DNA of 64,000 nucleotides, taken from positions 4,251-68,250 of IMG/VR virus record IMGVR_UViG_3300046684_000188; one strand, written 5' to 3'. Of the stretch, positions 46,681-64,000 are shown one piece after another. The translations under genes and the position numbers were made by a program. The notes below the pieces were generated by a model. That model made no database searches and was not told the origin of the DNA. It saw only the letters and a program-made list of their open reading frames with translations. Source of the stretch: a virus. How positions within the stretch are numbered: position 1 is the first letter of the stretch; the number at the start of each line of letters is the position of its first letter.

Positions 46681-46700
46681 CCATAGCCGGAGCACTGGGG

Positions 46701-46738: not shown

Positions 46739-46754
46739 ACTTCCAAGGGAGCAA

Positions 46755-47471: not shown

Positions 47472-47483
47472 GAGCCCACAAAC

Positions 47484-48608
47484 ATGGCAACACGACCCGT
47501 AGTATTCAGCGACGAGCAACTTCGAGAGATGGTCAACCAAGACTTTGGCGGGGTAGTAGCGCCCGGAGGACCAGGCGGCGGTCCCGCAACCGTCGAGCAC
47601 CACATTGCAGACCCCTCTACCGGCGTTATCAACACCGCGCGCACCGGCTATGTCCCGTCTCAGGCTGCAGCTATGGACGGCGGCATTGTCCGCGGTCGCG
47701 CTTACGATCACGCTTACATGGCGCTCAAGAATGCGGTCTTGAAGCGTATCTCGGCTACGGGGCTCCGTCCGTATACGCTGGTCAGCTTCCTCCCGATTCC
47801 GCTGATTGTGTGCTCCCCGATGGAATCTCTCCGCGTGCGCATCGCTCCAGCTCCTCACCCGGAAGACGTCGCAGCCGGCCGAGCGTACCCGTTCTCCTGG
47901 CACACATGGGATCAGCCCGCGATTGAAGTCATGGAGCGCGGCGAGAACACTAAGCAGCCATGGGAGTATCACCCCATCCAGCTCGCGCAAGAGTTCCTCG
48001 AGCAGTACAAGGAATACGGCGGAATCTACCTCTTTGAGGGCTACATGACGAAGGAAGTCATGGAGTCGGATAAGTTCCAAGAGGGTACGGAAGCCTGCAA
48101 AGAGGGCATGTTTGTATGGATGCGCTCGAAGATCGAAGAGGCAAATGCCGAGTGGAACAGCCCGAACCACATGGGAGCGAAGAACATCGTTGAATACCAC
48201 CGGCTCTGTGCGATGTGGCTGAAGCAGTACGGCATCATCGACAACCTCCCGGAGTGGATCACCGAAGCCCGGCGCCTGCAGGACGTTCAGGCCAAGTGTC
48301 CGCGCTGCAAGAATACGCCGCAGGCTGGCGCGCTGACCTGCACCGTCTGCAACGAGATCCTCGACCCGGCGCAAGCCTTCACCGAGGGATTCATCACCGA
48401 GGAGCACGCCGCACTCGAGCGCCTTACCCGCAAGCAGGTTGAGGAGCTGGGATGCTCGGCCTTCGTTGCGGAGACGGCAGACGAGCGGCCAGAACGGGTA
48501 AAGCAGGGTCTCCCCCGTCCCTTGTCGATCGCGCAGAAGCGGGCGCTCCAGTCGCAGGCGCAGAAGCTCGAGGGAGAAGAGCCGGGCACCGAAGGACGAA
48601 ATTGGTAA
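47484..48608 (+). CDS. Hypothetical protein with C-terminal Zn ribbon
   Basis: CPRC...CTVC, SD AGGAG. Confidence 0.7.
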   Translation: MATRPVVFSDEQLREMVNQDFGGVVAPGGPGGGPATVEHHIADPSTGVINTARTGYVPSQAAAMDGGIVRGRAYDHAYMALKNAVLKRISATGLRPYTLVSFLPIPLIVCSPMESLRVRIAPAPHPEDVAAGRAYPFSWHTWDQPAIEVMERGENTKQPWEYHPIQLAQEFLEQYKEYGGIYLFEGYMTKEVMESDKFQEGTEACKEGMFVWMRSKIEEANAEWNSPNHMGAKNIVEYHRLCAMWLKQYGIIDNLPEWITEARRLQDVQAKCPRCKNTPQAGALTCTVCNEILDPAQAFTEGFITEEHAALERLTRKQVEELGCSAFVAETADERPERVKQGLPRPLSIAQKRALQSQAQKLEGEEPGTEGRNW

Positions 48609-48626
48609 AGGAAACGAGGAGAGTAG

Positions 48627-49328
48627 ATGCTTCAGGACGCTAACGCCGTAGCCCAAAGAGCCGCTGCTCTCCTCGACGATCCGACGATGAGCCGTTACCC
48701 CATCGCGTATCAGCTCCCTTTCATCGACCAGTGTTACGACGTGCTCGACGTCCAGCTCGAGCAAGCCGGGATGCAGTACATCGAAGCAATCGCCATCGTG
48801 GATATTGCTGCGAACATCACCGACCTCTCCTATCTTCTGGTAGCCGGGCAAGCTCTGGCGACGATGAAGCTCCCCAAGGGCGTGTGGTGGAAGCTCACCG
48901 GACAGCCCGACATTATGTATCAGCCATCCATCGGCCCGGTTGGCGAGCTGACAGAGGTTCAGGACTCCGCCTCCGTTGGCGCTCTGCAATGGCGCTATGC
49001 GCAGGGAGCCATCCAAATCACACCCTCCGTCGAGACGATGACGCTCAAAATCTTCTATGACGTGGTGAGCACCAACGTTGTCGACCCTGATACCGGCGTA
49101 GTCCGCGGCACGGCTCATATCCTCGCCTTCGACGTTGCCTCCGAGATAGCGGGAGCCCGCAAGGGCATGGAGCAGCGTTCGGCGGCGCTCGCACTCAAGA
49201 GAACGCGAGCATGGCAGGCGTTCAAAGACGTCATCGTAAAGAATCAGCAGTCCAACCCGGTTGAGGCGAAGCCGTTGCATGGCACCCTCCGGATGGGAGA
49301 CCCCTTTATCCGCGCGTCTGGAACCTAA
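48627..49328 (+). CDS. Head-tail adaptor (putative)
   Basis: RAAALLDD..MSRY....LPFIDQ N-terminus, size and position typical of podoviral adaptors. Confidence 0.55.
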   Translation: MLQDANAVAQRAAALLDDPTMSRYPIAYQLPFIDQCYDVLDVQLEQAGMQYIEAIAIVDIAANITDLSYLLVAGQALATMKLPKGVWWKLTGQPDIMYQPSIGPVGELTEVQDSASVGALQWRYAQGAIQITPSVETMTLKIFYDVVSTNVVDPDTGVVRGTAHILAFDVASEIAGARKGMEQRSAALALKRTRAWQAFKDVIVKNQQSNPVEAKPLHGTLRMGDPFIRASGT

Positions 49329-49382
49329 GACGCCTCAACCGCAGCGAACTTCCGAACCCGCGAAAGCGCAGGAGGAATCACA

Positions 49383-49766
49383 ATGGCAGTAGCAATTACC
49401 GCACTCAAGCCCCTACCCAGCCGTCGCAACATCCAGAAGCGTTACAGCCTGGCCCTCACCGGCAACTATGCAACGGGTGGTGTGGCTCTGGACCTCTCGA
49501 CGATCCTCAATCCCAGCTTCTACGAAGCGGTCAACTTCGGTGGACCCGGGCTCCCAGCTCTCAGCCAGTTCAGCGTTGTGGCCCCCGCGGGCTATGAGGT
49601 TGAGGTTGTCTCCTCGGGCGTAGGATCACCGACCCTGGCGACGGGCTTCTTGCTGAAGTTCTACACCACGGCGGCAACCGAAGTTGCAGCGGGCGCGTTC
49701 CCTGCAGGGCTGACGGGCTCCCCCACTTACCTTACGGTTTCAGTCAACTCTTACACCCAAGTCTAG
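49383..49766 (+). CDS. Small virion structural protein
   Basis: MAVAIT start, GNYATGG motif, SD GGAGG. Confidence 0.55.
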   Translation: MAVAITALKPLPSRRNIQKRYSLALTGNYATGGVALDLSTILNPSFYEAVNFGGPGLPALSQFSVVAPAGYEVEVVSSGVGSPTLATGFLLKFYTTAATEVAAGAFPAGLTGSPTYLTVSVNSYTQV

Positions 49767-49778
49767 GCGCGAGGACGG

Positions 49779-52532
49779 ATGGACTTCGGAGACGCAAAAC
49801 CTCAAATTGTCCCTCGCTTCGGCTCTGCCGTCTTTTGGGACAATGAAACACAGTTGCCGCTAGGGCTGGCGCGGGATGTGACGAACTGCCGCTACCGCGC
49901 TCAGTCCATAGCGACACGCTGGGGCTTCGACGTGCGCCTCCGCTTTGGCATACAAGGCTCGAGGCTCACCGGTCTCCAGAACATCCGTTACCTGGCTCCG
50001 TCGAACAACGGCGACGAGATAATCAAGCTTCTCGGCTACACCGCGGTCGACGGCAATATCTACTCTGCCACCCCGTTCCAGCAGCCGAGCGTTACCCAGC
50101 TCACCACAGACGCGGCGCTGGCGAATATGAACCTCCCGCGCATCGCCAACCTCAACCCGCGCATCATTCAAGCCTTCAACAAGGGCATCGTCGCGCAGGG
50201 CAATCTCGCGCAGGGCATCGGAAACCCGATGATTTACGACCCGGAGCAGGGCACCATCGACCCCGTATCCGACAAGCCAGTCGGAACCCCATGGACGCCA
50301 TTGACCCGCTTTCGCGTCGGTCAGATGGTCTCTCCCTCCGAATTCATCACCAACGGGCTCCCGGCAATTCAGGGCGTATGGCACCCGCTCATCACCGGAC
50401 ACCTCTACCGGGTTACCTCCTACACCGGCACCGGGCAGACTGGAAGCGCACAGCCGGGTTGGCCTATCACGCCTGGCGCCATAGTCGTCTCGGGCGATAT
50501 CACCTTCACCGAGGACACTCCCACAGCCGGAGCCGGTCTCCCCGACCCCTTCGCTCCCCTCTTCGTTGCCGAGCCTTCCGACGCGGGCTCCCCGATTATC
50601 GACGGCGCATGGGTCTATGTCGTTCTGACCTACGTTTCGGCAGTGGGAGAGAGCACCAACGACCTCACCGACACCAACGGCCAACTCGACCACTCTAAAG
50701 TTTTTGTCTACCACAACCAGACAGGCGGGCCCGTCGACCTAACCATGGTGACTCCGCCGATTCCTGCAGCATTAGGCACTGGTGGACCTTACGGCGCGGC
50801 GGGCGCGACTGGATACAACGCCTATGCGTACATCATCCAGACCGGCCTCCCGGATCAGTCGAAGATTATTGACCCGACCTACTACGCGCAGTACGCGGCG
50901 AGCATAGCGGGCGCAACCAACTTCACCCTCAACGCTTACCCGACCGGCCCGGCGCTCCCAGCCGTGAATACGGCCAACATCTCCGGCGAGGGCAACGTCG
51001 ACCCCGGGCTCCGTTATATGGTCGTCATCTTCGAGACGAGGACGGCGTACCAGACCGGGTTTACCCGCTCGGCACCGATACCGGTAGACATTTCTAACAG
51101 TGGGCGGAGAATCAGGGTTCCGAATCTTCCCATCGGACCTTACAACTGCACGGCTCGAATCTGCGGGTTCACCGTCGCCGGAGCCTCCGCAGCCGGCCCC
51201 TACGCCTACGTTGCGCAGGACGACGTCGAAAGCCCGGGATTCAACCAGCCGGATATACCGATCACGTCGACCCGCATCAACGACAACACGACGACCAACA
51301 TAGAGTTCAACATCACCGACTCTTACCTCCCTGGCGCCACAGACATTACGAGCTATCTGCAGCGGGTGGAAGTGACAGACGCCTCGGACGTCTATTTCTC
51401 GAAGTCCCTGCTTCGCGTGGTCTACACCGGCATGGAGGGCTTCCCCTCCGCCTTCATCGTCTCGGACGTGCAAGACCCGGAGGCTATCCGCATCCCGGGC
51501 TCGAACCTTCCAGTGGCCGAAGCGGACGGCGACCGCTGCGTCTGCTTCCGTGAGTTCCGCGAGAACCAACTAGCTCTCAAGGAAAACTCCGGATACGCCA
51601 TCGTCCCGAATGACGGCGACCCGTCGACATGGGCGACGAATAGACTCTGGGGTGGATCCGGACCCACTGGCTCGAAGGCAGTAGCAGTAGGGCTCGACAA
51701 CGACAATCAGACCGAGTTCCTTGCTTACGCGCACCGCAGCGGCGCTTTCCGGTTTACCGGAGGACAGCCCCAGCTCATCAACCGCGAGCTGATAGGCACG
51801 CAGGACCAGCCCGGATGGTGGGACCGTATCAACTGGACCTACGGCTATCTGATTCAGGTAACGATCGACGAGAAGCGGCGGGAGCTGCGCTTTGCCGTTC
51901 CCTTCGATGGATCGCAGACGCGGAATAAGGTTCTGACCTGCAACTACCAGTACGGGTGGGAGGAGCCGGTTGTCTTCGCGGTACGCCAGGGGAGGATGAT
52001 TCCCAACCTCAACGGGCGGAAGTGGTCCCTTGACGACGTCACGGCGGAGGAAACCTGCTACGTTCCTCGGCGCTACGATCCGGACGGCTCGCAAGTCAAC
52101 GTTGCGCTCACCGAGGAGCTTATGGTCGGTGGACCGGATGGCGCGCTCCGCACCCTCAAGGAGGGGCAGTACTTCGACGATGCCTATGACGGCATTACCA
52201 AGGTCGGCTATATGTCGAAGTGGGACGGAGTCGTTGGGCCCGGAGCCTCACTTGCGCTCTACCAGCTAGAGGGCGCTTCCTGCTCGGCTATCGGGCATGG
52301 TCCCATCAACGTCTACGCACGCGACGATCAGGGCGTCTACTACCCGCTGTCGACCCCACAGAGGACGTGGACGCTTACGACGACCGAGTCGCAGCGAGAC
52401 TTTGGCGTGGTCGGCATCGAGGAGCGATGCTTCGGAATCGGGTTCGACAATGGCGGGATAGCTGATAACTGGTTTGAGATGCACGTTGCGAACCTCTGGC
52501 TTACCCCGACCTTCCAGACCAGAACGGGCTAA
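49779..52532 (+). CDS. Tail nozzle / DNA-stabilisation protein (P22 gp10 / T7 gp12-like)
   Basis: 917 aa, beta-propeller-like composition, WDRINW motif, position after the adaptor. Confidence 0.6.
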   Translation: MDFGDAKPQIVPRFGSAVFWDNETQLPLGLARDVTNCRYRAQSIATRWGFDVRLRFGIQGSRLTGLQNIRYLAPSNNGDEIIKLLGYTAVDGNIYSATPFQQPSVTQLTTDAALANMNLPRIANLNPRIIQAFNKGIVAQGNLAQGIGNPMIYDPEQGTIDPVSDKPVGTPWTPLTRFRVGQMVSPSEFITNGLPAIQGVWHPLITGHLYRVTSYTGTGQTGSAQPGWPITPGAIVVSGDITFTEDTPTAGAGLPDPFAPLFVAEPSDAGSPIIDGAWVYVVLTYVSAVGESTNDLTDTNGQLDHSKVFVYHNQTGGPVDLTMVTPPIPAALGTGGPYGAAGATGYNAYAYIIQTGLPDQSKIIDPTYYAQYAASIAGATNFTLNAYPTGPALPAVNTANISGEGNVDPGLRYMVVIFETRTAYQTGFTRSAPIPVDISNSGRRIRVPNLPIGPYNCTARICGFTVAGASAAGPYAYVAQDDVESPGFNQPDIPITSTRINDNTTTNIEFNITDSYLPGATDITSYLQRVEVTDASDVYFSKSLLRVVYTGMEGFPSAFIVSDVQDPEAIRIPGSNLPVAEADGDRCVCFREFRENQLALKENSGYAIVPNDGDPSTWATNRLWGGSGPTGSKAVAVGLDNDNQTEFLAYAHRSGAFRFTGGQPQLINRELIGTQDQPGWWDRINWTYGYLIQVTIDEKRRELRFAVPFDGSQTRNKVLTCNYQYGWEEPVVFAVRQGRMIPNLNGRKWSLDDVTAEETCYVPRRYDPDGSQVNVALTEELMVGGPDGALRTLKEGQYFDDAYDGITKVGYMSKWDGVVGPGASLALYQLEGASCSAIGHGPINVYARDDQGVYYPLSTPQRTWTLTTTESQRDFGVVGIEERCFGIGFDNGGIADNWFEMHVANLWLTPTFQTRTG

Positions 52533-54047
52533 ATGGCAAAGACAAACGTAATCCCGGTCCAGAAGATTCAGCAGGCGGCGGGCAACAACTCGGAGCTGCG
52601 CGAGATCCTGCAGGCACTCTCGAACACTGGAAACCTGCAGCTCACCGCAACCAACACGGCTATAAAGAACACCCCGCCACAGGTACGCGCAGACGTATCC
52701 TTCTTGGCCAAGTCCACGGCTTACGTTGTACAAATCACCAACCCGGGCGCGGTCTCTCCGGTATCCGCGATTCAGGCGACCGAGGCGAGGCAAAACGCTA
52801 CAGCCTCCTCGAACATCGCAAACGTGGTCTCTATCTACCACCAAATCAGGGTTGCAACCTCGCCGCGCTTCTCCATCTCGGACAACGTCCAGACCTTCGG
52901 CGGCGATACCGGCTCCACGCAAACCTACTGGGAGATAAGCTCTCTCGGCTCCGGCCTCTGGTACTTTCAGGTCCGCTCGAGCTATGACGGAGTCAACTGG
53001 AACCTCTGGAAGAACGCCAACGGCGGGCAGACGATCACCGGCCGCATTGAGGGCGTCACCGTGGAGGACGTCACCAACGGCGCGGCGGCGCTCTTCTCGC
53101 TCTCGGGAAACCAACTCTTTGCAGCGATGGCATCCTTCGCGGCAGACGGGCAGAGCATCGGCGTACCCAGCGAGCTTTATACCTCTGCGATGCTGGCGAT
53201 AGCTGGACCCAACGGATTCCAACCCCAGCCGTCCAACCTGGCGCACGGTATCATCGCCAACGAGGTAGATATCCCGACTCCGAGCCCGCTCCCGGGTGGA
53301 TCTGGACCTCCGGATTATCCGGCCTACGTCCGCGAGCAGTATCAAGACGGTCAATCGCACGTTTGGAGTGGCAGCGCGAACGTCTTCGCCTTCCTCTATG
53401 ACCCTCTGGCCGACAATTACAACCTTCAGGCGACCTCGGATGGGCTCTGGGTAGACTTCCAACTCCCCGGCGGCGCTCACTTCACCATCGGCGCAGGCGT
53501 CACCGCGGACGGCGCTGCTATCGGTCTCCCCTCCGACTTCCCATGGGTGGTGGTAAGCCGGCTGCTGTCGATCGTATCCCCCAACGTGGGGTTCAACGCT
53601 ACCCGGCAAGCTCGAGGAATCACTCAATCGGTCATCACTGGCGGGGTGATGCACTGCCAGTTCGAAGACACGACCGCACATGCTTGGTCGGCAACGGGAA
53701 ATTGGCTGGCCTTCTCGTGGAGCGCGGGATATCCGGTTGTGGGCGTCTCCGGAGGGCAGTGGCTACCGTTCGTCACTCCCAGCGGGACAAAGGTAGCGTT
53801 TGGAGCTGGGTCAGGGCCAAACGGCTCGGCTCTGGCGCTACCGGTAGCAGCGGGCGCGTTCACCTCGGACAAGATGCTCGGCATCGCTACCCCGGCGAGC
53901 GCGGCGGCGACGTCGCACCCCATGGCAGGCGTCTACAAGTGCGCCATCAATCCCGGTACACCGCCAACGCTAGAAACCACTTACACTGACACCCAGGGGA
54001 ACTACTGGAACGGTTCCGTAAACTGGATGGCCTTTGCATGGGAGTGA
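52533..54047 (+). CDS. Tail appendage protein with C-terminal tandem ~100-aa lectin-like repeats
   Basis: Three repeats ending Y/F..D...H/N.W.G/A..NW.AF.W. Confidence 0.55.
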   Translation: MAKTNVIPVQKIQQAAGNNSELREILQALSNTGNLQLTATNTAIKNTPPQVRADVSFLAKSTAYVVQITNPGAVSPVSAIQATEARQNATASSNIANVVSIYHQIRVATSPRFSISDNVQTFGGDTGSTQTYWEISSLGSGLWYFQVRSSYDGVNWNLWKNANGGQTITGRIEGVTVEDVTNGAAALFSLSGNQLFAAMASFAADGQSIGVPSELYTSAMLAIAGPNGFQPQPSNLAHGIIANEVDIPTPSPLPGGSGPPDYPAYVREQYQDGQSHVWSGSANVFAFLYDPLADNYNLQATSDGLWVDFQLPGGAHFTIGAGVTADGAAIGLPSDFPWVVVSRLLSIVSPNVGFNATRQARGITQSVITGGVMHCQFEDTTAHAWSATGNWLAFSWSAGYPVVGVSGGQWLPFVTPSGTKVAFGAGSGPNGSALALPVAAGAFTSDKMLGIATPASAAATSHPMAGVYKCAINPGTPPTLETTYTDTQGNYWNGSVNWMAFAWE

Positions 54048-54478
54048 GCTGGCAGGAGTGGCGCTTATCGGTAGACGGTCTGACCTGGCGCGTTGCGGGC
54101 AAGGAAGACGCGGAGGCGATAGCGGACGTCCTGTTGCTCGAGTCGCGGAAGCACGGTCCAGCCGATATCCCGAACCTTTTCGATAAACCCGTCCTTCTCA
54201 CCCTTGTCGCCGAAGACGAGAACGGCGTCATTGTCGACGGAGTCTACATCGAGGCTGTCGCGGAGGTTATCAAGTTCGCGACCGATCGCCGAGCGTTTGC
54301 AGCCCATGACGCTCTTCTCCCTGTAATTGGCGGGTTTCTGCAGGAGCGCGGGCTCCGCATTGCGCAGATGACTACCTTGAAACGATGGGCGAATGCCATG
54401 GCTCCGGCGCTCGAGCGGTTAGGGTTCAAGCGTCAAGACGGAAAGTATTCTCTCTGGGTCCGGAGAGTAGCGGATTAG
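54038..54478 (+). CDS. GNAT-fold protein (P22 gp14-like position)
   Basis: WRVAGKEDAEAI, LVAEDENGVIV, ALERLGFK. Confidence 0.6.
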   Translation: MGVSWQEWRLSVDGLTWRVAGKEDAEAIADVLLLESRKHGPADIPNLFDKPVLLTLVAEDENGVIVDGVYIEAVAEVIKFATDRRAFAAHDALLPVIGGFLQERGLRIAQMTTLKRWANAMAPALERLGFKRQDGKYSLWVRRVAD

Positions 54479-54488
54479 GGAAAGAGGC

Positions 54489-54520
54489 TTGCCAAGGTTG
54501 CGCTAAATGGTATTCTCCCC
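54489..54520 (+). promoter_or_regulatory. Promoter (TTGCCA-16 nt-TATTCT) for the ejection-protein operon
   Basis: AATGGTATTCTCCCC motif. ATG lies 10 nt after the -10 box with no SD. Confidence 0.65.
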
Positions 54521-54526
54521 TCCGCG

Positions 54527-55096
54527 ATGGCGAAACCCGGGCAGACAGCGAACCAAGACGCCGTAAACGACTACTCCAAGTGGGAGGGCAACGCGCTCTC
54601 CGGGTATAACACCGACGTCGGCAACTTCGTCTCGAATACCAACTCTGCGATAGCTCAGGGTAACCCCTACGAAAGTAAGTCCTACCTCACCAACCAGAAC
54701 ATCCTGACCTCGGGCGCGATGAATTCCGCCAAGACCGCGGCCAACGCTGCGACCGCAGACACCGCGCGCAGGACCGGAGGCAACACCGCAGCCGTCCAGG
54801 CATCGCGGGACGCTACCGCACAGGGTCTATCCCGGCAACAGACGCAGTACAACGCGCAGCGGGATACGGACAACCTCGACAAGTGGCTCGGCCAGCGGCA
54901 GCAGCTCTACAAGAATCAACTCGACGCGGCAAACTCCGAGGCGAATATCTACGGCTCGTCCGTCGCAGGCCGCTCGAATGGAGCCTCCAACCTCGCCGAC
55001 CTCGACAAAGCGAAGATGGCGATGACCAGCGGAATCATCTCCGGAGCATTAGGCGCGGGTGGAACGGGCGTAGGCGCATGGCTCGGGAGGAAATAG
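54527..55096 (+). CDS. Internal virion / DNA ejection protein (gp7-like)
   Basis: Ala/Asn/Gln-rich helical protein with Gly-rich hydrophobic C-terminus, typical position. Confidence 0.55.
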   Translation: MAKPGQTANQDAVNDYSKWEGNALSGYNTDVGNFVSNTNSAIAQGNPYESKSYLTNQNILTSGAMNSAKTAANAATADTARRTGGNTAAVQASRDATAQGLSRQQTQYNAQRDTDNLDKWLGQRQQLYKNQLDAANSEANIYGSSVAGRSNGASNLADLDKAKMAMTSGIISGALGAGGTGVGAWLGRK

Positions 55097-55099
55097 CCC

Positions 55100-56503
55100 A
55101 TGGCTTACGGCGAAGATTCGCTCCCGTACTACATCCAGCGTCCAGACGACGAGGAAGAGCCTACCTTTGGCGCCTCGCTTGACTCCGCTTATAAGAACGA
55201 TAGTGCGTCGGCATTGCCTCCGACTGCCATGCCGATGGGCGCGGGCGCTGGGGTTACTCCCCAACCCGCGCTGACGGCACCCTCTGTACCTGTCATTGAC
55301 CGCTCCCAGTTCGACCGCTGGAGCCGGGCGAAGCAGGTAGATGCGGTTCCCACCGATCGTAACGACGCCTCGGTAAAGCCTCGCCTCTGGGAACGCCTCG
55401 CAGGCGGGCTCTCGGCTGCGGCGATGGCCTACGGACACGTCCCGGGCGCGCTCGAGACTGGCCAGAACATCACCGACCGGCGCTACAACCGGGCAGAGGA
55501 GCAGCGGCAAGGGCGTCTCCAAGCCGACCAGACAGGGTTGGACGCCGAGCAGGCCAACATCGCCGCACAGAATCAGGAGTACGACCAGCGGCTCAAGAAC
55601 TTCAATGCGCAGGACCGGGCGCAGTACTGGCAGACGCTCAACGCCAACCGGGCGGCGCAAGAGCAGCAGCGGTTACAGGGCATCGCTCCGGGCTCGGAAG
55701 CTCCCGACGATCCGAACAACCCATTGGGCACATGGAGCGCGAGGACCATCGGCGGGCAGAAGATCGCGGTTCAGGCTCCCGACAGGTTTACCAAGTCTCC
55801 CGCGGGCATCTCCGCGCAGCGTGAAGCAGACGTCAAGCGTCTCGGTCTCAAGGGCGACGAGGCTAAGTACTACCGCGCCAACGGCAAGCTCAAGGAGCCC
55901 ACGGCGACCACCAACGTCCACATCCCGAGTGCTGAGTCGCAGGAGTATAACGACTGGAAGAAGCAGTTCACCCAGGAGACCGGTCATGCTCCGACCGCGG
56001 CGGATACACAAACATATCGTCATGGTGGTGCGGGTAAGGGTACTAAAGTCCGGATGGGGACACCCGCGCAGTTCTCCCAGCTCGACAAGGACACTCAAGC
56101 TCAGTACACCAAGGCGGAGGCTGACTATCGGGTTGCAGCGGCCAACGCGCAAACCGATGAGGAACGCGCGGCCGCGCTTGCGGACCTCAATGTTTCGAAG
56201 ACCAAGATAGGCGCAGATCACTCGGACAGGCTCCGCGACCTTGGCGGAATCCCCGCTGAGGATAGCCAAAGAAGTGGTGGGAATGCGGCCCCGGCTCCGG
56301 CAGCTCCTCCCTCACAACCTGCGCCCAAGCCGGCGGCTTCGGCCCCGGCGGCGCAGGCACCCCCACAAACCGCGCCTCAGACCGCAAAGGTCGGAAATAA
56401 AACGCTAAAAGTGGGTGATCCCGTTCAATTACCGGATGGAAGCCAAGGTATAGTTACAGGGATAAATCCGCAGACCGGTAAACCTATAGTCAAAAGGAAG
56501 TAA
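55100..56503 (+). CDS. Internal virion / DNA ejection protein (gp20-like)
   Basis: Gln/Ala-rich coiled coil, Pro linker, small C-terminal SH3-like domain. Confidence 0.55.
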   Translation: MAYGEDSLPYYIQRPDDEEEPTFGASLDSAYKNDSASALPPTAMPMGAGAGVTPQPALTAPSVPVIDRSQFDRWSRAKQVDAVPTDRNDASVKPRLWERLAGGLSAAAMAYGHVPGALETGQNITDRRYNRAEEQRQGRLQADQTGLDAEQANIAAQNQEYDQRLKNFNAQDRAQYWQTLNANRAAQEQQRLQGIAPGSEAPDDPNNPLGTWSARTIGGQKIAVQAPDRFTKSPAGISAQREADVKRLGLKGDEAKYYRANGKLKEPTATTNVHIPSAESQEYNDWKKQFTQETGHAPTAADTQTYRHGGAGKGTKVRMGTPAQFSQLDKDTQAQYTKAEADYRVAAANAQTDEERAAALADLNVSKTKIGADHSDRLRDLGGIPAEDSQRSGGNAAPAPAAPPSQPAPKPAASAPAAQAPPQTAPQTAKVGNKTLKVGDPVQLPDGSQGIVTGINPQTGKPIVKRK

Positions 56504-56509: not shown

Positions 56510-59500
56510 ATGGCGACGTCTCCCGTTACGCTTTCTGCAGGGGAGTTCGAGGAGGAAAATGCCTCCTCGTCTCCCGTTGCGCTCAAACAGGGTGAGTTCG
56601 ACTTTGAAGACTCCACCCCAGCGAAAGCGGCAGAGCCCGACTATGCGCACCCGGCAGGCGGCACCGCTCCCCAGCTCCCCGCGCATCCCGCGCTCGATAT
56701 GGAGGCTCCGGGCTCCCCGTTCGGCGTCAGCATCCCCAAGGAGGCGAAACAGCAGGTAGAGGCAGGCTTACGCGGCTCCTACGAGCGCAACCCGGGCCCG
56801 GTCGTATCGGTAGGCAAGCGCGCAGTAGAGGCGGCTACGCAGTTCGGCGGCGGCATACAGAAGACTTTCACCCCGACCGACGCGGAAGTCCGGGAGCGCA
56901 ACTTCCCCTCCGTACCCATGACCGACGCGGAGAAGCAGGTTGCAAACCGGCAAGCGTCCAAGGGGCTGGCCGAGTTCGTCGCAGGAGGCTCGACCGGAGT
57001 AATCGCTGCATCGGCTCCGGAGCTGATGGAGCTGGGAAGCTTGGCAGCATCGGGCAACATCGCGGCACGTTCGGCCATTATCAAGATGCTGACCTTGGCG
57101 GAGGCTGGAAACGTCGGCTCGGCGGGCGCTGGGTACGCGGCAGACAAGATGCAGTTGTCTCCCGAAACGAAGGAACTGCTTCAGACTGCGGCTTTCTTCC
57201 TCCCTAACCTCGCAGGCGTAGCCCTCGGCAAAGCTGGATTCAAGGGCGATATCGGTGTAGATCCTCAAGGCAATCCGGCTATCGGTGTTGCGGCGCCAGG
57301 CGGAGGACCATCGGCGGGCGTGCGTGGAACCCCGCAGGCTTACGAGGCAGGCGTCAGGTCCGGAGACAGCTTCTTTGGAATCCGCATCCCGCGGAGCCAG
57401 CGTCCCGGAGCCCCGGAGATGCCGAACGAGCCCGCGATGCTCCCGGGCGCGGCACAAGTCAGCCAGGCGCAGACCCAGAGCGCGGCAGTGGCAACGATCG
57501 CGCAGGCCGACGCGCTTACCAAGCAGGCGAAGGATATTGTCACCGGCAACGGCAACGGACAACCCAAGGCACCACCCGAGCCCGTTCCCCCGGGCATGGA
57601 GAAGGGCCAGGTAACGCCCAAGGTTGTAGACACCATGGCGCAGCTCATCTCCGCGGCGCCAGAGGAAATGCGCGGCTCCATGCTCATGGACGCGCACTCA
57701 CGTCTCGCCGACTGGATACAGAAGACAGGGCGCTTTGTCGGTCCTGACGGAAAGCTAGTATCGGCGGAGACTCCGGAGAAGGCTGCTGCGGCGGCGGAGA
57801 AGCTGATAAACGACGCGGTCTCCTCGCATACCAAGCAGCAGGAGACGCAAGCTAAGGAAGTAGAGAAGCAGCAGGCCGAGCAGGAGAAGGCGCTCAAGGA
57901 TCAGGCGAAGGAGGATCAGAAGGCCCAAAAAGAGGCAGAAAAGGCAGCTAACACCAAGAATGAAAACGGGTTGACCACTGATGAGCAAACCGCGGCCAGG
58001 GTGAAGACGCTTATCGAGGCGAATCCCGACCGTAAAGACCCGACCTCGATGATTCAGCGGGTTCTGAAAGTAGGGTTCGGACGGGCGCAAGAGCTTATCC
58101 AGCAGTACGAGCAGACCAAGAAGGTCACCCCGCAGGAGCCCACCCCGAGCGAGCTACAGGCAAAGCTCCAATCCCTCGCCAAGGGTGAGACGAAGCTGGT
58201 CCATATCGCGGGAGGCACGGAGGAGAAGCTTCAGCTCCCGGCAGGCATGAAGGAGATAAAGGTCTCCGGCGATACCTACATCTACGATCCGACGAAGCTG
58301 CGCGCGGCGACGATCAAAGACGCCATCAAGGCTGGAACCATCGGCGATATCACCGGCCAGGTGCAGCCCACCGAGGAGCTACAGCAGGCACCCGAGACGG
58401 TTACGGTGGAGGCAAAGAGCCCCGAGGGCGAAGTCATCCAGTCGGCAGAGGCTACCCCGGAGAGGGTGGAGGACCAGAAGGCAGAGCTTCAAGAGCGTCA
58501 CCCGGAAGCGAAGGTTGAGACCGACGACGACATAATCGACGACGATCCGAAGTACCGGCGCATCGAGAAGGCGCTCGATGAGTTCTACATGAGCAAGGAG
58601 TACCACCCGGACAGCGAGTTTTCGAAGTTCTATCCGGACGCTACGACCTACCTTCGCAGCAAGTTCACCCGGATACCGCTCGAGGATCTAACCCGCTACC
58701 ACCAGATTTACGAGCGCGACAACCCACCGAAGACGCCGGCGGCGGGCGAGCAGGCACCGGTAGAGCTGGCGGAGGGCGAGTTTGAGCACGAGGCGGAGAC
58801 CCCGCAGACTGAGAGCGCAGTACCGGCCAAGGCGGAGCCCGAGCCAAAAGAGGTTGTAGAGCAGGAAAATCCGGAGAGAGAAGGAGGTCGCGGACAATCG
58901 CCAGAGCCAGTGGCCGGTCCAGTAGTACCGGCCACTGAAACACCCACAGGAACCACAGAAGAAGCAGTGGTAGAAGGTGAGAAGCCAGGAGCCGGGCGGA
59001 AGGTTGCTCCCGCACCGGTGCAACATCCTGTTACATACCTCAGCGGCAAGGACTCTCCTGCCATCCGAGAAGCGGCGAAGCGTCGCGGCGATATCGGCCT
59101 ACTGGTCACCCCGCTCAAGCCTGACTATCTCAAGTTCGCGGACGATTACCCCGTCATTGCCATAGATAACGGCGTCTTCAGTCAGACAACACCATTCAAT
59201 GAAGGCAAGTTCCGGAAGCTGGTAGAGCAGACGGCCAAGAATCCCGAGGTAGCAAAGAAGGTCCGTTTCGTAGTGGCTCCCGACGTGGTCGGCGATGCGT
59301 CCGGAACGCTCAAGCAGTTCGACCAGTGGGCGGATTTCATCCACGAGCAGGGTCTCCCGGTTGCGCTGGCGGCACAGAACGGGCTCGAGTTCATGCCGGA
59401 GCAAATCCCATGGGACAAGATCGACGTCCTGTTTATCGGAGGCTCAACCGAATGGAAGCTCGGCCAACATACCGAGAAGTTCAAGCCAGGTGGAAAGTTC

Positions 59501-62500
59501 GAGAAGAACCCCGGATACGTCGAGGGCTCCCAAACACCTTGGTACAACCTGTTCCGCGAGGCGGAGAAGCACGATGTTCCGGTCCACATGGGCAGGGTCA
59601 ACAGCGGCGAGCGTCTCAACATCGCGGAGTACGGGCTCGGCGCAACGACGGTCGACGGAACCTTCCTCGCGTTCGGACCCGACAAGAACCAGCCACAGCT
59701 CGAGGACTGGCTCAACAAGCAAAACAGCCGTACCGATCTGGATGACAGCAGGGTAAAGGGCGACGTTGAGATCAAGACGGATAAGGGCTCGAGGGTTCGA
59801 TTCACAGATCGCACCGGCACAGATCGCATTGGCACGGTAGCGCACAATAACGAGAAAATCACCCGCATCAAGTCCGAGGGCAAAGAGTACACGACTCCCA
59901 CGAAGAACCTTCGCCCGCTTCCAGAGGAGAAGTGGAAGCCCATGAAATTCGACGATGGGCGATGGGGCGTAACTGACGGGAAGGAAGAGTTGCTCGCGGG
60001 GCAGGACCAGGCAGGGGCGCAAGCCGTTGCCGACCAGTGGAACATCGCGGCGGAGCCGAAGAGAGAGTTGAACCCTGCTCGAGACAAGAAGCTCCCGGAT
60101 AGCTTCTATCACAGCATGGAGGCGATTACACGCGGGGCGAATACGAAGGAAAAGAAAACCAAGCCCACGGCGGAGTGGCACAAGAAAGGCCCGGCTCCGC
60201 TGGTCCAGAACCCCAACGGCGGGTGGAGCTTCAAGGGGCTTGTCCCGCAGGCGCTTTATGGTGGAGCTGGACAGCCAGGTGGCTGGAAGACGAGCGAGGA
60301 GGCGCTACAGTTCGCCAAAGACAAGGGATTCGACGTCTCCGGCGTACAGGTTGTGCCGAACGCTCCCGAGGCGAAGCAGGAGCCTCCGAAGCCGACCGAG
60401 CCCGTCACCTTCACCGTCAAGAGCCTACAGACTGGCAAGGAGAGCAGCCTTTCGTTACCCGGCAAGGAACCGGCGCGCGTTCCTCCCGTCGAAGACGCTA
60501 GAGAGCAGAAGGTTACTCCAACCCCTCCATTCCACATCGCCGAGGGCGGCGACGGCTTCATGGTGAAGGACGCGGCGGGCTACATCTGGTCGAATCACAC
60601 CCACCGGGAGAAGGCGGAGCAGTCGTTTGAGCGTCTCGAGATGCACTTCCCGGCCTCAAATAATGTTGAAAAACAGGAAGTAGAGGCGCAGAATAAACCC
60701 ATACACCTAACCTCCGATGCGCTCGGCGCGGCGGGCATGGAGGGGGTAGAGACCGGAGCGGGTGTGGCTCCGGAAGGTAAGGAGGCGGCGAATGTCGAGC
60801 GTAGCGGTAGATCCGGAGCTGGACGCCCGCCTTCCGATACTGGAAGCAGAGATATCGCGCCAGTGGGAGAAGCACCTTCCGACGAAGTACAAGCGCCTCG
60901 AGGAGAGCGGAACCCTGAAGAAGGAGATTCGCTCGAAGGCGCTCCAGTGCATCAAGCTCCTGAATCAGTACGAGGAGCGGGGACTCGCAGCGAACCGCGG
61001 GGAGGAAGCGATTCAGTCCTTGATAATTCCCCCGGACAGCCTCTAGTCAAAGAGGCAAACAAGAAACTCGCTGCACCCGTCCGTCAAAATACCAAATGGT
61101 ACACACACCCCGATAACTGGCAGGCCCCCTCGGGCACCATGGGGAAGATGGACGCCAACATCGAGGCGCTCAAGATCCTGCGCGAGGTAGAGAAGAACCC
61201 TCGGCCCGTCACCGAAGAGGAGAAGGCCAAGCTCGCAAACTTCGTCGGCTGGGGTGCTCTGCAGTGGGTGTTTGATCCTTACGGCGCTCCCTACGACCAG
61301 CGCACCCGATTCCAGCAGGCGTACAACACCGTCAAAGACCTCCTTAGCATGGAGGAGATACAGGCGGCGCGTAAGTCGACGCTCAACGCCCACTACACGA
61401 GCCCCGAGTTAGTCCGAACCATGTGGGACATTATGAAGCGGTTCGGATTCAAGGGCGGAAACGTCCTCGAGCCGTCCATGGGCTCCGGCAACTTCTTCGG
61501 CATGATGCCCAAGACGATGCGCAATAACGTCTCCGCCATGGGCAACGAGCTGGACCCGGTTACGGCCGGCATCGCAAAGCTGCTGTATCCGGATGCGGCA
61601 ATCTTCAATAAAGACTTTACCCAGCTCATCATCCCGGACAACAGCATCGACCTTGCTATCTCGAACGTCCCGTTTGGCGGCAAGATTTACGACCCGCAGT
61701 ATCGCAAGCTCAACGCCAACATCCACGACTATTTCTTCGTCAAGTCTCTCGACAAGGTAAAGCCGGGCGGAGTGGTCGCGTTCATCACGTCGACCGGCAC
61801 CATGGACAAGCCCAACGACCTCATCCGTGAGGCGCTGGCGTCGAAGGCTGACCTACTGGGAGCTATCCGGCTCCCTTCGGGCGCGTTCTCGAAGAACGCA
61901 GGCACCGAGGTTACAACCGACCTCATCATCCTGCAGAAGCGGGCGCCAGGGGAGACGGCCAAGGGTCCGGACTGGCAGAAGACGGTAAAGACACAGATTC
62001 CCGACGAAGCAGACGGCACCGGCCCGATGCACGATGTTCAGCTCAACGAATACTTCGTCAAGAATCCTCACATGATGCTGGGACGCCCGGCAGTGTCGCA
62101 GATGTACTCCCGCTCTGGGTTCGCGCTCTACCCGCACGCCGAGGGCAAGATCGAAGACTACCTCGAGAAGGCGATAGCCAAGCTCCCCCGCGGCGTGATG
62201 CTCGAGGAGAAGGGAGTCGGCTTCAACCAGGCGGAGACGGTTGCGCAGTTTGCCAAGCAAAACCAACTGGACGGGCAATACGTTCTAGACGAGAAAGGCA
62301 ACCTCCGGCAGGTACAGGGTGGAAAGCTGGTCCCTGCAGAGGCAGTGATGGGAACGGACGGCAAGCCGAGCTTGCACAAGGTAAAGCGCGTCAAGGCGCT
62401 CATCGGCGTTCGTGACCAACTCAACGACCTCCTCTCCTCGATGACGACCGAGCCCGACGACGATAGGGGCAACGAGAAGGTTGCGAAGCTTCGGGAGAAG

Positions 62501-64000
62501 CTGCTCAAGGAATACAACGGGTTCGTCAAAAACTTCGGCTATCTGTCGACCTCCGCCAACGGCATCCTCGCCGAAGATCCGCACTACCCCCGCCTACTGG
62601 CGCTCGAGCATTACAACAAGGCGACCAAGACGGGTACGCCCGCCGATATCCTCGTCAGGCGGACCATCTATCCGCGGACACCGCTTACCTCCCTGGCCGA
62701 CGATCCGAAGGACGCGCTCTATCAGGTACTCGCCGAGCGCGGCTATCCCGACGTCGAGCTAATGGCGAAACTCAAGGGGGAGAAGGCGAAGGATATCGCC
62801 AAGACCCTCACCGACGTAGGGCTCGTCTATCGCAACCCCATCTCTGGCGACTACGAGATGAGGGAGAAGTACCTCTCCGGCTACGTCCGCGACAAGCTCG
62901 ACGACGCCCGCAGAGCCGTCGCGCAGGGCATGAAGGAGTATGCGCCCAACGTCGACGCGCTCGAGAAGGTCCAGCCCATAGACGTGCCTATCGCGGAGAT
63001 TGAAGTAAAGCTGGGCGCGACGTGGATTCCCACCGACGCTATCCGAGACTTCACTAACGATGTGATGGGCCAGGACAGCCCGAAGATCACCTATCACCTG
63101 GGCGAGTGGAACGTCCAAGGCTTCATCCGAACGGCGGAGAGTACCTCCGAGTACGGCACGTCCTACTATGACGCCTCGGAACTACTGAAGCTCGGGCTCA
63201 ACCAGAAAGAGCCCACCGTCATATCGAAGACAAAAGAGGGGGAGTTTACCAACGTCCCTGAAACCCTGCTGGCACGGCAGAAGCTCGAGAATATCCGCAA
63301 GGCGTTCAACGGCTGGGCATCGCAGTCAGAGAAGTGGGCTAAACCCCTCGAGAAGGCGTACAACTACGCTTTCAACAACATCGTCCTTCCGGAGTACAAC
63401 GGCTCGCATCTCACCTTCCCCGGGAAGAATGCCTCCATCACGCTCGACCCTCACCAAGTAAACATCGTTTGGCGGAACCTGATGGAAGGGCGCTCTCTGA
63501 TTGCGCACGCGGTTGGAGCGGGCAAAACCTACTCCATTATCGCGACGATTATGGAAGGGCGCCGAACCGGGCTCCTGCGCAAGGTAGTTGTCAACGTCCC
63601 GAATCACCTTGTAGAGCAGTGGGCTAAATCGTTCGCCATGCTCTACCCGGGCTCGAACGTCCTCGTTCCGACTGAGAAAGACTTCAGCGCGAAGAACCGG
63701 CAGCGGCTCATGGCGCGCATCGCAACCTCCGACTACGACGCCGTTATCATGGCGCGCTCCCAGTTCGATCGCTTCGATATCTCCGCCGAGCGCCAGGCGA
63801 AGGTGATGGACCAGATGATCGAAGAGAAGCTGCGCACCATTCAGGCGATGAAGATGACCCGGGAGGATGGGCGCACCGTCAAGCGCGAGGAGAAGGCGCT
63901 CGAGGCGCTCCGGACGAAACTGAAAAAGCTGCAGGACTCCGCGAAGGACAAGGTCATCGCGTTCGACGATACCGGCGTGGATGCCGTCTTCACCGACGAA
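56510..64000 (+). CDS. Giant polyvalent internal virion protein, DarB-like (FtsK-gamma-like, TGT/DpdA-like, N6-MTase, SNF2 helicase); 3'-truncated
   Basis: Frame from ATG 56510 is open in every segment translated and reaches the window end. STLNAHYTS, VLEPSMGSGNF, SNVPFG (MTase); AHAVGAGKT and DAVFTDE (helicase Walker A/B). Confidence 0.88.
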   Translation, partial: MATSPVTLSAGEFEEENASSSPVALKQGEFDFEDSTPAKAAEPDYAHPAGGTAPQLPAHPALDMEAPGSPFGVSIPKEAKQQVEAGLRGSYERNPGPVVSVGKRAVEAATQFGGGIQKTFTPTDAEVRERNFPSVPMTDAEKQVANRQASKGLAEFVAGGSTGVIAASAPELMELGSLAASGNIAARSAIIKMLTLAEAGNVGSAGAGYAADKMQLSPETKELLQTAAFFLPNLAGVALGKAGFKGDIGVDPQGNPAIGVAAPGGGPSAGVRGTPQAYEAGVRSGDSFFGIRIPRSQRPGAPEMPNEPAMLPGAAQVSQAQTQSAAVATIAQADALTKQAKDIVTGNGNGQPKAPPEPVPPGMEKGQVTPKVVDTMAQLISAAPEEMRGSMLMDAHSRLADWIQKTGRFVGPDGKLVSAETPEKAAAAAEKLINDAVSSHTKQQETQAKEVEKQQAEQEKALKDQAKEDQKAQKEAEKAANTKNENGLTTDEQTAARVKTLIEANPDRKDPTSMIQRVLKVGFGRAQELIQQYEQTKKVTPQEPTPSELQAKLQSLAKGETKLVHIAGGTEEKLQLPAGMKEIKVSGDTYIYDPTKLRAATIKDAIKAGTIGDITGQVQPTEELQQAPETVTVEAKSPEGEVIQSAEATPERVEDQKAELQERHPEAKVETDDDIIDDDPKYRRIEKALDEFYMSKEYHPDSEFSKFYPDATTYLRSKFTRIPLEDLTRYHQIYERDNPPKTPAAGEQAPVELAEGEFEHEAETPQTESAVPAKAEPEPKEVVEQENPEREGGRGQSPEPVAGPVVPATETPTGTTEEAVVEGEKPGAGRKVAPAPVQHPVTYLSGKDSPAIREAAKRRGDIGLLVTPLKPDYLKFADDYPVIAIDNGVFSQTTPFNEGKFRKLVEQTAKNPEVAKKVRFVVAPDVVGDASGTLKQFDQWADFIHEQGLPVALAAQNGLEFMPEQIPWDKIDVLFIGGSTEWKLGQHTEKFKPGGKFEKNPGYVEGSQTPWYNLFREAEKHDVPVHMGRVNSGERLNIAEYGLGATTVDGTFLAFGPDKNQPQLEDWLNKQNSRTDLDDSRVKGDVEIKTDKGSRVRFTDRTGTDRIGTVAHNNEKITRIKSEGKEYTTPTKNLRPLPEEKWKPMKFDDGRWGVTDGKEELLAGQDQAGAQAVADQWNIAAEPKRELNPARDKKLPDSFYHSMEAITRGANTKEKKTKPTAEWHKKGPAPLVQNPNGGWSFKGLVPQALYGGAGQPGGWKTSEEALQFAKDKGFDVSGVQVVPNAPEAKQEPPKPTEPVTFTVKSLQTGKESSLSLPGKEPARVPPVEDAREQKVTPTPPFHIAEGGDGFMVKDAAGYIWSNHTHREKAEQSFERLEMHFPASNNVEKQEVEAQNKPIHLTSDALGAAGMEGVETGAGVAPEGKEAANVERSGRSGAGRPPSDTGSRDIAPVGEAPSDEVQAPRGERNPEEGDSLEGAPVHQAPESVRGAGTRSEPRGGSDSVLDNSPGQPLVKEANKKLAAPVRQNTKWYTHPDNWQAPSGTMGKMDANIEALKILREVEKNPRPVTEEEKAKLANFVGWGALQWVFDPYGAPYDQRTRFQQAYNTVKDLLSMEEIQAARKSTLNAHYTSPELVRTMWDIMKRFGFKGGNVLEPSMGSGNFFGMMPKTMRNNVSAMGNELDPVTAGIAKLLYPDAAIFNKDFTQLIIPDNSIDLAISNVPFGGKIYDPQYRKLNANIHDYFFVKSLDKVKPGGVVAFITSTGTMDKPNDLIREALASKADLLGAIRLPSGAFSKNAGTEVTTDLIILQKRAPGETAKGPDWQKTVKTQIPDEADGTGPMHDVQLNEYFVKNPHMMLGRPAVSQMYSRSGFALYPHAEGKIEDYLEKAIAKLPRGVMLEEKGVGFNQAETVAQFAKQNQLDGQYVLDEKGNLRQVQGGKLVPAEAVMGTDGKPSLHKVKRVKALIGVRDQLNDLLSSMTTEPDDDRGNEKVAKLREKLLKEYNGFVKNFGYLSTSANGILAEDPHYPRLLALEHYNKATKTGTPADILVRRTIYPRTPLTSLADDPKDALYQVLAERGYPDVELMAKLKGEKAKDIAKTLTDVGLVYRNPISGDYEMREKYLSGYVRDKLDDARRAVAQGMKEYAPNVDALEKVQPIDVPIAEIEVKLGATWIPTDAIRDFTNDVMGQDSPKITYHLGEWNVQGFIRTAESTSEYGTSYYDASELLKLGLNQKEPTVISKTKEGEFTNVPETLLARQKLENIRKAFNGWASQSEKWAKPLEKAYNYAFNNIVLPEYNGSHLTFPGKNASITLDPHQVNIVWRNLMEGRSLIAHAVGAGKTYSIIATIMEGRRTGLLRKVVVNVPNHLVEQWAKSFAMLYPGSNVLVPTEKDFSAKNRQRLMARIATSDYDAVIMARSQFDRFDISAERQAKVMDQMIEEKLRTIQAMKMTREDGRTVKREEKALEALRTKLKKLQDSAKDKVIAFDDTGVDAVFTDE
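60666..60694 (+). promoter_or_regulatory. Putative internal promoter for the nested gene
   Basis: TTGAAA-17 nt-CAGAAT in a locally AT-rich patch inside the giant ORF. Confidence 0.5.
60792..61046 (+). CDS. Nested out-of-frame gene (84 aa), weakly TnpV-like
   Basis: SD TAAGGAGG 6 nt before ATG. MSSVAVDPELDARLPILEAEISRQWEKHLPTKYKRLEESGTLKKEI... reads as a helical globular protein. Confidence 0.65.
   Translation: MSSVAVDPELDARLPILEAEISRQWEKHLPTKYKRLEESGTLKKEIRSKALQCIKLLNQYEERGLAANRGEEAIQSLIIPPDSL

Follow-up and report, generated by a model that had tools for sequence, protein, structure and literature searches.

A compact DpdA-like module fused in frame to the methylase and helicase of a DarB-like giant phage protein

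To our knowledge, the DpdA enzymes studied so far are either stand-alone proteins that are made during infection or components of bacterial islands. Among phages, they include the DpdA1-type proteins of 9g and CAjan and gp87 of Arthrobacter phage Sonali, and the CAjan enzyme is genetically required for dPreQ0 (PMC6884629). DpdA of Salmonella Montevideo (PDB 7ui4), a triosephosphate isomerase (TIM) barrel, is a DNA preQ0 insertase with Asp95 as general acid/base, Asp130 for recognition of the base and Asp256 as nucleophile; replacement of Asp95 or Asp256 by alanine abolishes guanine exchange (PMC10164549). DarB of phage P1 and the DarB-like polyvalent proteins are giant phage proteins that combine an N6-adenine methylase with a helicase (PMC5512222). 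In this study, we describe a DpdA-like module, a relative of the tRNA-guanine transglycosylases (TGTs), that lies within a giant DarB-like open reading frame (ORF) of a virus, IMG/VR record IMGVR_UViG_3300046684_000188. The record is linear, contains 68,250 bases and is rated 99% complete. The stretch that we analysed, hereafter the window, comprises 64,000 nucleotides (record bases 4251-68250), and positions are those of the window unless stated otherwise.

The giant frame extends from 56510 to 64000 on the plus strand, with 2497 codons and no stop, and encodes at least 2497 residues. Because the window ends where the record ends, the frame runs off the record and breaks off within the helicase at motif II, with VFTDE as its last residues. 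The module occupies 59030-59713 (residues 841-1068), and the interval 59030-59715 translates to 228 residues without a stop. The six motifs quoted in a preliminary description of this DNA, IAIDNGVF (59156-59179), FVVAPDVVGDASGTL (59267-59311), LAAQNG (59366-59383), VLFIGGSTEWK (59426-59458), VHMGRVNS (59582-59605) and TVDGT (59648-59662), are all present on the plus strand in this one frame, between 59156 and 59662. Farther downstream, the PHROGs family phrog_10089, "DarB-like antirestriction", matches residues 1392-2497 (expectation value, E, 2e-300). An N6-adenine DNA methyltransferase domain lies at 61109-62089 (+; phrog_11801 "DNA methyltransferase", E 1.8e-129, and Type II methyltransferase models), with the motifs VLEPSMGSGNF and NVPFG at 61463-61678. 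The N-terminal half of a superfamily-2 helicase, from GAGKT through DE, follows at 63428-64000 (+) and is cut by the record end; it is matched by Pfam PF04851 (ResIII; E 6.2e-5, above its cut-off) and by phrog_62 (DNA helicase), and its Walker A motif GAGKT is read at 63515-63529 in the frame of the giant ORF. An N6-adenine methylase and a helicase within one giant phage protein are the hallmark of DarB-like proteins. The preliminary description had also claimed that the module is fused in frame to this methylase-helicase, and we looked for a stop or frameshift between the module and the methylase and found none. Because a single uninterrupted frame carries the module, the methylase and the helicase, nothing separates the module from the methylase, and the fusion is real.

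Scans of the 228-residue module against Pfam, NCBIfam and PADLOC returned nothing meaningful, and phrog_15826, a PHROGs family annotated "function unknown", matches it in two stretches at a level that chance could not explain (E 2.1e-43). The block common to other giant proteins is slightly wider than the module (59003-59737). An AlphaFold model built from a 42-sequence alignment predicts eight strands alternating with helices (mean predicted local distance difference test score, pLDDT, 91.3; predicted template-modelling score 0.89); the modelled barrel is complete in about 210 residues, and the model ends about 20 residues past strand 8. A 22-residue insertion, the KFKPGGKFEKNPGYVEGSQTPW region (59468-59533, +), is absent from most relatives according to the alignment gap and is modelled with low confidence (pLDDT 54-70 in the blocks covering module residues 141-170). 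When the model was compared with one representative per PDB cluster, the matches were a class II aldolase (Z 14.7), Cap10, a TGT-family enzyme of the cyclic-oligonucleotide-based antiphage signalling system, CBASS (Z 14.6-14.7; root-mean-square deviation 3.2-3.3, 193 residues aligned, 14% identity), a ribulose-phosphate epimerase (Z 14.2), an archaeal TGT (Z 13.3), bacterial TGT (Z 12.7-13.4) and the DpdA insertase 7ui4 (Z 12.8; deviation 3.2, 196 residues and, at 16%, the highest identity). Chains of the TGT superfamily as a whole (Cap10, archaeal TGT, DpdA and TGT) reached Z 12.7-14.7 over 192-198 residues. A Foldseek search of the PDB did not discriminate either, and gave TGT entries at template-modelling scores of about 0.5 mixed with PdxJ and aldolases. 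The predicted fold alone thus does not settle an assignment to TGT/DpdA.

The assignment is settled by hits in a library of viral predicted structures, profile homology and residue pairing taken together. The viral library gave 30 hits at E <= 1e-3, 13 of them named; eight of the 13 are queuine tRNA-ribosyltransferases, Sonali gp87 included, and one is an ART-PolyVal protein. For the profile comparison, a search with Sonali gp87 yielded 3987 relatives, and an alignment was built from 66 of the 150 best. The 42-sequence family alignment matched this second alignment in hhalign with a probability of 96.8% (E 2.7e-10, 111 columns), compared with at most 0.8% (E >= 0.066) for 20 column shuffles, 0.2% for the reversed alignment and 0.4% for an unrelated transporter alignment. 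Sonali gp87 itself finds the DpdA of phage 9g (E 2e-12) and that of CAjan (E 4e-9) by tblastn, and the only PDB match of its profile is Salmonella DpdA 7ui4, a weak one (E 0.014). At the profile level, the module is homologous to the DpdA1-type proteins. Comparison with TGT and DpdA by structure and by profile, which the preliminary description had suggested as a check, therefore bore out both the predicted barrel and the superfamily.

The same sequence comparisons indicate that the module belongs to the TGT/DpdA superfamily and appears to lie outside every catalogued family. None of 42 members of its family is hit at E <= 1 by the Pfam models for TGT (PF01702) and DUF6610 (PF20314), and the 228 residues hold no cysteine that could serve a zinc site of the TGT type. 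In TGTs, a zinc-binding Cys/His cluster follows the barrel. Of the TGT/DpdA-like domain proposed earlier, the superfamily barrel and its intact aspartates stand, and a canonical TGT, judged by these signatures, does not. PF01702 also detects none of the 66 DpdA1-type proteins at E <= 0.01 and gave nothing over 50 whole virus records, missing Sonali gp87 (record G045) as well. Because the model is blind to DpdA1-type phage proteins, Pfam-based surveys under-count phage DpdAs. The prototype of DpdA4 (DUF6610), HVTV1_69, compared as a single sequence, reached 0.6% in hhalign, and tblastn with the family found no match in phages 9g, CAjan, nt-1, phiST or HVTV-1. Weak structural matches were obtained to unnamed proteins of nt-1 (R9TGF0, E 3.7e-4) and phiST (M4SLA5, E 1.1e-3), which we take to be the DpdA2 and DpdA3 prototypes. 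The ESM Atlas returned unnamed viral clusters, and its nearest named cluster, DUF6610 at 0.89, is a lead only.

Active-site residues were paired through the hhalign alignment of the module with the DpdA1-type proteins and then through the weak 7ui4 profile match (E 0.014) to Salmonella DpdA; conservation was counted over 157 aligned family members and over 15 members of the branch found in giant proteins. Asp886 (D46 of the module, in IDNGVF; 59165-59167) corresponds to DpdA1-type D35 and Salmonella Asp95 and is kept in 156 of 157. Asp1049 (D209, in VDGT; 59654-59656) corresponds to DpdA1-type D172 and Salmonella Asp256 and is kept in all 157, as is Asp925 (D85, in APDVVGD; 59282-59284), which corresponds to DpdA1-type D71. 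D71 and D85 likely correspond to Salmonella Asp130, judging by the sequence in which the three invariant Asp residues occur. Gly977-Gly978 (G137-G138; 59438-59443) pair with DpdA1-type G122-G123 (G138 kept in 156/157 and G137 in 117/157, with Ala at residue 137 in the other 40) and, judged by position, probably form the glycine-rich loop that follows strand 6 (Salmonella DpdA G206-G207). F50 of the module pairs with DpdA1-type F39 and Salmonella Phe99, and H186 pairs with DpdA1-type H153, in the DpdA1-type alignment only. Gln956 (Q116, in AAQNG; 59375-59377; kept in 156/157) stands at the position of DpdA1-type H101, and the order Asp-His-Gly-Gly suggests that this is the position of Salmonella His181. 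In addition, K143, R189 and N191 are invariant in the family (157/157 each) and have no DpdA1 counterpart. The three catalytic-type aspartates are kept in 15 of 15 giant-branch members, in which all catalytic and pocket residues are identical. The earlier statement that the catalytic-type aspartates are intact is therefore borne out by three aligned aspartates in the expected order, accompanied by the Gly-Gly loop.

According to these comparisons, the module shares with DpdA1 the motif order D-S/N-G-x-F, x-D-V-I/V-G-D, G-G, H-x-G and final Asp, and its stand-alone relatives, like DpdA1, also lie in QueC/D/E/FolE clusters. It differs in length (about 210 rather than about 300 residues) and in setting, since it forms part of a much longer protein (at least 2497 residues) whose phage lacks preQ0 genes. 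With Salmonella DpdA it shares the barrel and, through the alignment chain, counterparts of Asp95 and Asp256, that of Asp130 being given by order only. Unlike the module, Salmonella DpdA is a 413-residue chain with extra elements, is accompanied by the ATPase DpdB and belongs to a restriction-modification island; moreover, the profile of the module family gives no direct sequence match on 7ui4.

The family is large. Of 4428 candidates 125-399 residues long, 3684 are relatives at E <= 0.001; 377 family members were found in IMG/VR and 154 in one-per-species bacterial genomes, mostly of Actinomycetota, whereas only 27 of 50,697 cultured-phage records have a match. Stand-alone copies of actinophages carry the GenBank label "DpdA-like tRNA-guanine transglycosylase". 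Two other labels deserve mention. A 213-residue stand-alone member in Erythrobacter phage ZS04 (PV416405.1, 63897-64538) is labelled "DarB-like antirestriction protein", and in Roseobacter phage CRP-701 (PV211009.1, 3778-4230) a family match underlies a gene labelled "ssDNA-binding protein"; both labels were probably transferred from giant-protein profiles that contain this module.

The neighbourhoods of the relatives provide information on function. We examined 160 loci, 80 viral and 80 bacterial, with local hidden Markov models and the Sonali Que proteins as queries. Among the viral loci, 49 have an ORF resembling the transporter YhhQ (Vut_1, PF02592) within 500 bp, seven have QueC/D/E/FolE within 6 kb and 24 have neither; the corresponding bacterial counts are 41, one (weak) and 38. 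After removal of copies more than 90% identical, the viral transporter link holds in 41 of 69 loci. The transporter ORF lies nearly always directly upstream of the family gene on the same strand. Overall, 90 of the 160 loci have the transporter and eight, one of them weak, have QueC/D/E/FolE. YhhQ is cited as a preQ0 transporter in PMC6884629. Because transporter or Que genes lie near the family gene in 98 of 160 loci, the stand-alone family is tied to 7-deazaguanine supply, and we regard this link as the strongest functional evidence short of experiment. An independent Pfam check of 50 whole virus records found PF02592 in 24 and QueC in six; no more than about 3.3 kb separates QueC from the family gene in any of the six, and the two genes abut in three. 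Furthermore, of 26 upstream ORFs hand-picked by size and position, 19 match PF02592 and two match QueF. A local jackhmmer search grouped 19 ORFs, gp54 of Mycobacterium phage GreaseLightnin and gp04 of Rhodococcus phage ReqiPine5 among them, with the first, Pfam-confirmed transporter ORF. The adjacent gp55 of GreaseLightnin and gp03 of ReqiPine5 are stand-alone family members paired with these Vut_1-like genes.

YhhQ homologues have already been noted in some phages, and no correlation with any phage group was reported (PMC6884629). The present loci differ: a Vut_1-like gene immediately precedes the stand-alone family gene in 49 of the 80 viral loci and in 41 of the 80 bacterial ones. The pair recurs as a two-gene unit (locus L029, 9472-10041, and 89 further loci among L018-L166; GenBank MK494122.1 gp54/gp55 and GU580943.1 gp04/gp03), in which the mini-DpdA gene begins where the YhhQ/Vut_1-like gene ends or overlaps its end. 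In-frame fusions of transporter and enzyme are suggested by the 419-residue protein P0138 and by two loci, L022 and L051, with stop-to-stop frames of 407-420 residues. In ReqiPine5 (L086), a gene annotated as a 3'-phosphoadenosine 5'-phosphosulfate (PAPS) reductase lies directly 3' of the pair (5706-6623). PAPS reductases and QueC have a common nucleotide-binding fold, and the product of this gene could supply or alter the base.

The window's copy belongs to the form carried by long proteins. In 11 of the 24 viral loci that lack both links, the module lies within an open frame of at least 400 residues; among the 80 viral loci, eight frames measure from 1601 to at least 5862 residues and three more measure 449-723. 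Protein collections added at least 21 carriers of 400-2000 residues and at least 26 of 1373-4370 residues, counts that are lower bounds since the searches were seeded on shared words. In 36 long proteins examined with the family model (13 of the 21 shorter carriers and 23 additional ones), the position of the module varies greatly, from residue 1 to residue 2646. Partner domains in other carriers include Mom, PD-(D/E)XK, ddrB-ParB, ART-PolyVal, Kinase-PolyVal and InPase, and helicases of the AAA_34/ResIII/Helicase_C_4 types. The closest copy, 65% identical over 245 residues, lies inside a 4073-residue protein that is otherwise unrelated to the giant ORF. When 12 frames from 10 related viral loci were compared, only L004 and L013 shared anything beyond the module: L004 also shares the methylase, and L013 shares the methylase-helicase, in a neighbouring frame. 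Because otherwise unrelated giants share the module, it behaves like a cassette passed from one polyvalent protein to another. In L013, a separate 351-residue family ORF (9611-10663) stands between ORFs of 2025 (3541-9618) and 2761 residues (10675-18960), the latter 33% identical to the methylase-helicase part of the window's giant protein; this arrangement may represent either a polyvalent gene that has been split or a stage in between.

In a FastTree phylogeny of 130 dereplicated sequences, all 11 giant-protein copies, including that of the window, are contained in a single 15-member group (local support 95), whose members have 41-67% overall identity. Three genes that abut QueC (L017, L021 and L046) stand next to this group, and the 76 transporter-linked genes are all placed in the opposite part of the tree. 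Since this is a quick, midpoint-rooted tree without an outgroup, a single origin of the giant-protein branch is suggested and not proven.

On balance, we lean slightly towards the view that the module uses a DpdA mechanism on DNA, with a 7-deazaguanine base drawn from the host pool and an antirestriction effect that complements the adenine methylase. Residues 841-1068 would then be an intact catalytic module from a compact branch of the TGT/DpdA superfamily that entered the DarB-like protein as a movable cassette. In such a reaction, the acid/base would be Asp886, and attack by Asp1049 on C1' of deoxyguanosine would displace guanine and leave the enzyme covalently bound to the DNA. This intermediate would be resolved by a free 7-deazaguanine base (preQ0, preQ1 or a relative), which would stay in the DNA and block restriction there. 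The base would come from the host's queuosine-precursor pool, because the phage encodes neither synthesis genes nor a transporter. The whole record (G000) has no match to QueC (PF06508) or to the YhhQ-type transporter (PF02592), and tblastn of Sonali QueC, QueD, QueE and FolE gave no match to the window or to bases 1-5400 of the record. The absence of preQ0 synthesis genes, noted earlier for the window, thus extends to the whole record as judged by the QueC model and tblastn, and this phage has no encoded 7-deazaguanine source of the kind by which a functional DpdA is recognised. If it resembles P1 DarB in this respect, the giant protein would travel in the virion and act on the phage genome upon entry, beside adenine methylation.

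A bolder version of this proposal is that some phages would deliver a finished base-exchange enzyme with their genome: the DpdA-like module, ejected as part of the giant protein, would replace guanines in the incoming DNA by host queuosine precursors, beside adenine methylation and moved along the DNA by the fused helicase. The giant-protein branch would then be a specialised lineage derived from stand-alone salvage modules of transporter plus mini-DpdA. We hold this version tentatively and consider it rather doubtful. If true, it would be the first case of an injected, precursor-parasitic hypermodification of DNA.

Several observations weigh against a DpdA mechanism on DNA. The profile of the family matched PDB chains at chance level (E >= 0.14), with no TGT or DpdA among them, and the TGT-type fold matches are level with those of unrelated barrels, all within about 2 Z units. 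To these must be added the missing TGT and DUF6610 matches, the absence of cysteine, the Gln that sits where DpdA carries a conserved His, and the lack of the C-terminal extension of DpdA1-type proteins. Bacterial DpdA requires the ATPase DpdB (PMC12839542), and no such partner was recognised here. The main texts on DpdA contained no functional test of any family member. Among the records of the giant-protein group (G000-G012), QueC or Vut_1 was found by Pfam in 0 of 13. The branch without 7-deazaguanine genes could therefore have changed substrate. Three phages carry both a mini-family gene and a DpdA1-type gene, and the two are therefore probably not simply redundant: Sonali (L002; 8001-8618 and 10988-11878) and L075 (633-941 and 4391-5008), in both cases beside QueC/D/E/FolE, and Vibrio phage vB_VpaS_R29Z (PQ289635.1; 54814-55257 and 56733-57332). 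As for delivery, the giant ORF is cut by the record end and its C-terminus is missing, and packaging in the virion would have to be supposed for a protein among whose scanned neighbours no structural gene was recognised. Of 10 large ORFs compared with PHROGs (E <= 1e-5), nine had no match and none was recognised as structural; ten ORFs scanned against Pfam gave only two sub-threshold hits, and the ORFs at 41375-43774 and 47484-48608 had no tblastn match in the 50,697 phage records.

Some of these observations also suit a module that breaks the glycosidic bond of guanine or a modified guanine without writing 7-deazaguanine. Such an enzyme could be a glycosylase, an eraser that strips dPreQ0 or dADG marks, a means of damaging host DNA, or an exchanger that inserts an ordinary or otherwise undescribed purine. 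The lack of a Que/YhhQ link in the giant-protein branch (0/13 records), the family's own invariants K143, R189 and N191, the Gln in place of the DpdA His, and the coexistence with a DpdA1-type gene in three phages, which suggests a non-redundant role, would all fit. We nevertheless judge this unlikely: the nearest tree relatives of the giant branch abut QueC, and all base-pocket and catalytic residues common with DpdA are kept. Most bacteria make preQ0 or preQ1, and for this reason the absence of phage genes need not mean the absence of substrate. An RNA target, as in true TGTs, would have the module replace guanine in host or phage tRNA and bias translation during takeover; the superfamily is indeed that of the tRNA-guanine transglycosylases, and the GenBank name of the stand-alone relatives says as much. 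We find this improbable, since the closest profile relatives are the DNA-modifying phage DpdAs and the partners are a DNA methylase and a helicase here and Mom, PD-(D/E)XK and ParB-like domains elsewhere. TGTs hold tRNA with a zinc subdomain and C-terminal parts; the module lacks these and contains no cysteine.

Cap10 of type IV CBASS (PDB 9ntn) raises the question of a protein target, to which the module would add, or from which it would remove, a 7-deazaguanine-derived group, for example to disarm type IV CBASS. Cap10 has a TGT-family barrel and is the best or tied-best solved structural match of the module, and it is described as a TGT-family enzyme remodelled for nucleobase-protein conjugation (10.1101/2025.04.06.647259). 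However, its Z score is tied with those of unrelated barrels at 14% identity, its substrate is a protein N-terminus, it works with a QueC-like partner (Cap9) of which the record has no match by the QueC model, and no sequence-level link was found between it and the module, whose profile leads to DpdA1-type proteins; this reading is very improbable. Least credible of all is a catalytically silent module that merely binds DNA or serves as a structural spacer, because every catalytic or pocket residue is kept in 15 of 15 giant-branch members at 41-67% identity, the pattern expected from purifying selection on activity.

The preliminary description's impression that the fusion had not been described is consistent with the literature on DpdA, DarB, polyvalent proteins and YhhQ. 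Neither the fusion nor the transporter pairing appears in the literature searched, and the supplements of Hutinet 2019 and Cui 2023 may list stand-alone members. The paper on polyvalent proteins makes no mention of TGT, queuine, deazaguanine or a TIM barrel, and its three uses of "transglycosylase" refer to cell-wall enzymes (PMC5512222). PMC12839542 concerns a bacterial TGT related to the bacteriophage exclusion (BREX) system and the GATOR-GC preprint concerns bacterial dpd islands. The stand-alone family is known to annotators and was not found in the main texts on DpdA; what is added here is the homology with its shuffled control, the counts of transporter and Que neighbours, the separate giant-protein branch and the cassette behaviour.

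The literature leaves open whether phages that encode only DpdA modify their DNA (PMC6884629). Two forms of the family offer answers that can be put to the test. One is the two-gene salvage module of a YhhQ-type importer and a mini-DpdA, present in 90 of 160 loci, with cultivable Mycobacterium and Rhodococcus phages among them; queuosine genes are absent from M. smegmatis (PMC6884629). The other is the giant DarB-like branch, in which the enzyme would enter the cell along with the DNA. An active module would widen the known set of antirestriction activities on polyvalent proteins and, at about 210 residues, would be a very small enzyme for base exchange in DNA, a potential tool.

The remaining observations concern other parts of the giant ORF and its surroundings. 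A linker rich in Pro, Glu and Thr, read from the translation, lies just ahead of the module (58727-59029, +). Within the otherwise family-less N-terminal 840 residues, a possible FtsK-gamma-like winged-helix DNA-binding motif (58037-58138, +; PF09397, E 1.6e-6, 28.2 bits) falls below its curated cut-off of 30.6 and is a lead only. At the start of the record, upstream of the window, bases 2-2905 (L003) hold a frame of 967 residues (P0144) with an open 5' end. As a candidate for the missing C-terminus of the giant protein it found no support: it matches no PHROGs or Pfam family, its frame is offset by one base from that at the record end, and blastp found no match to other giant proteins or to P0295. 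The tenth of the large ORFs, far upstream on the minus strand (9713-11614), matches an SbcC-like family in PHROGs. The large ORFs scanned within 41375-56503 matched no PHROGs family at E <= 1e-5 and no Pfam family above its cut-off, and the phage is very distant from cultured phages. The sequence ATGnTATTCT has six matches in the window, compared with 1.27 expected, and none of 100 shuffles reached six; the sites are 18035, 29026, 39976, 43802 and 54507 on the plus strand, the strand of the long rightward ORFs, and 40028 on the minus strand. This sequence is possibly a shared promoter element. Its copy at 54507-54516 stands ahead of the tightly packed genes 54527-55096 and 55100-56503 and the giant ORF, and is the sole hint that these are expressed together with the other rightward gene blocks.

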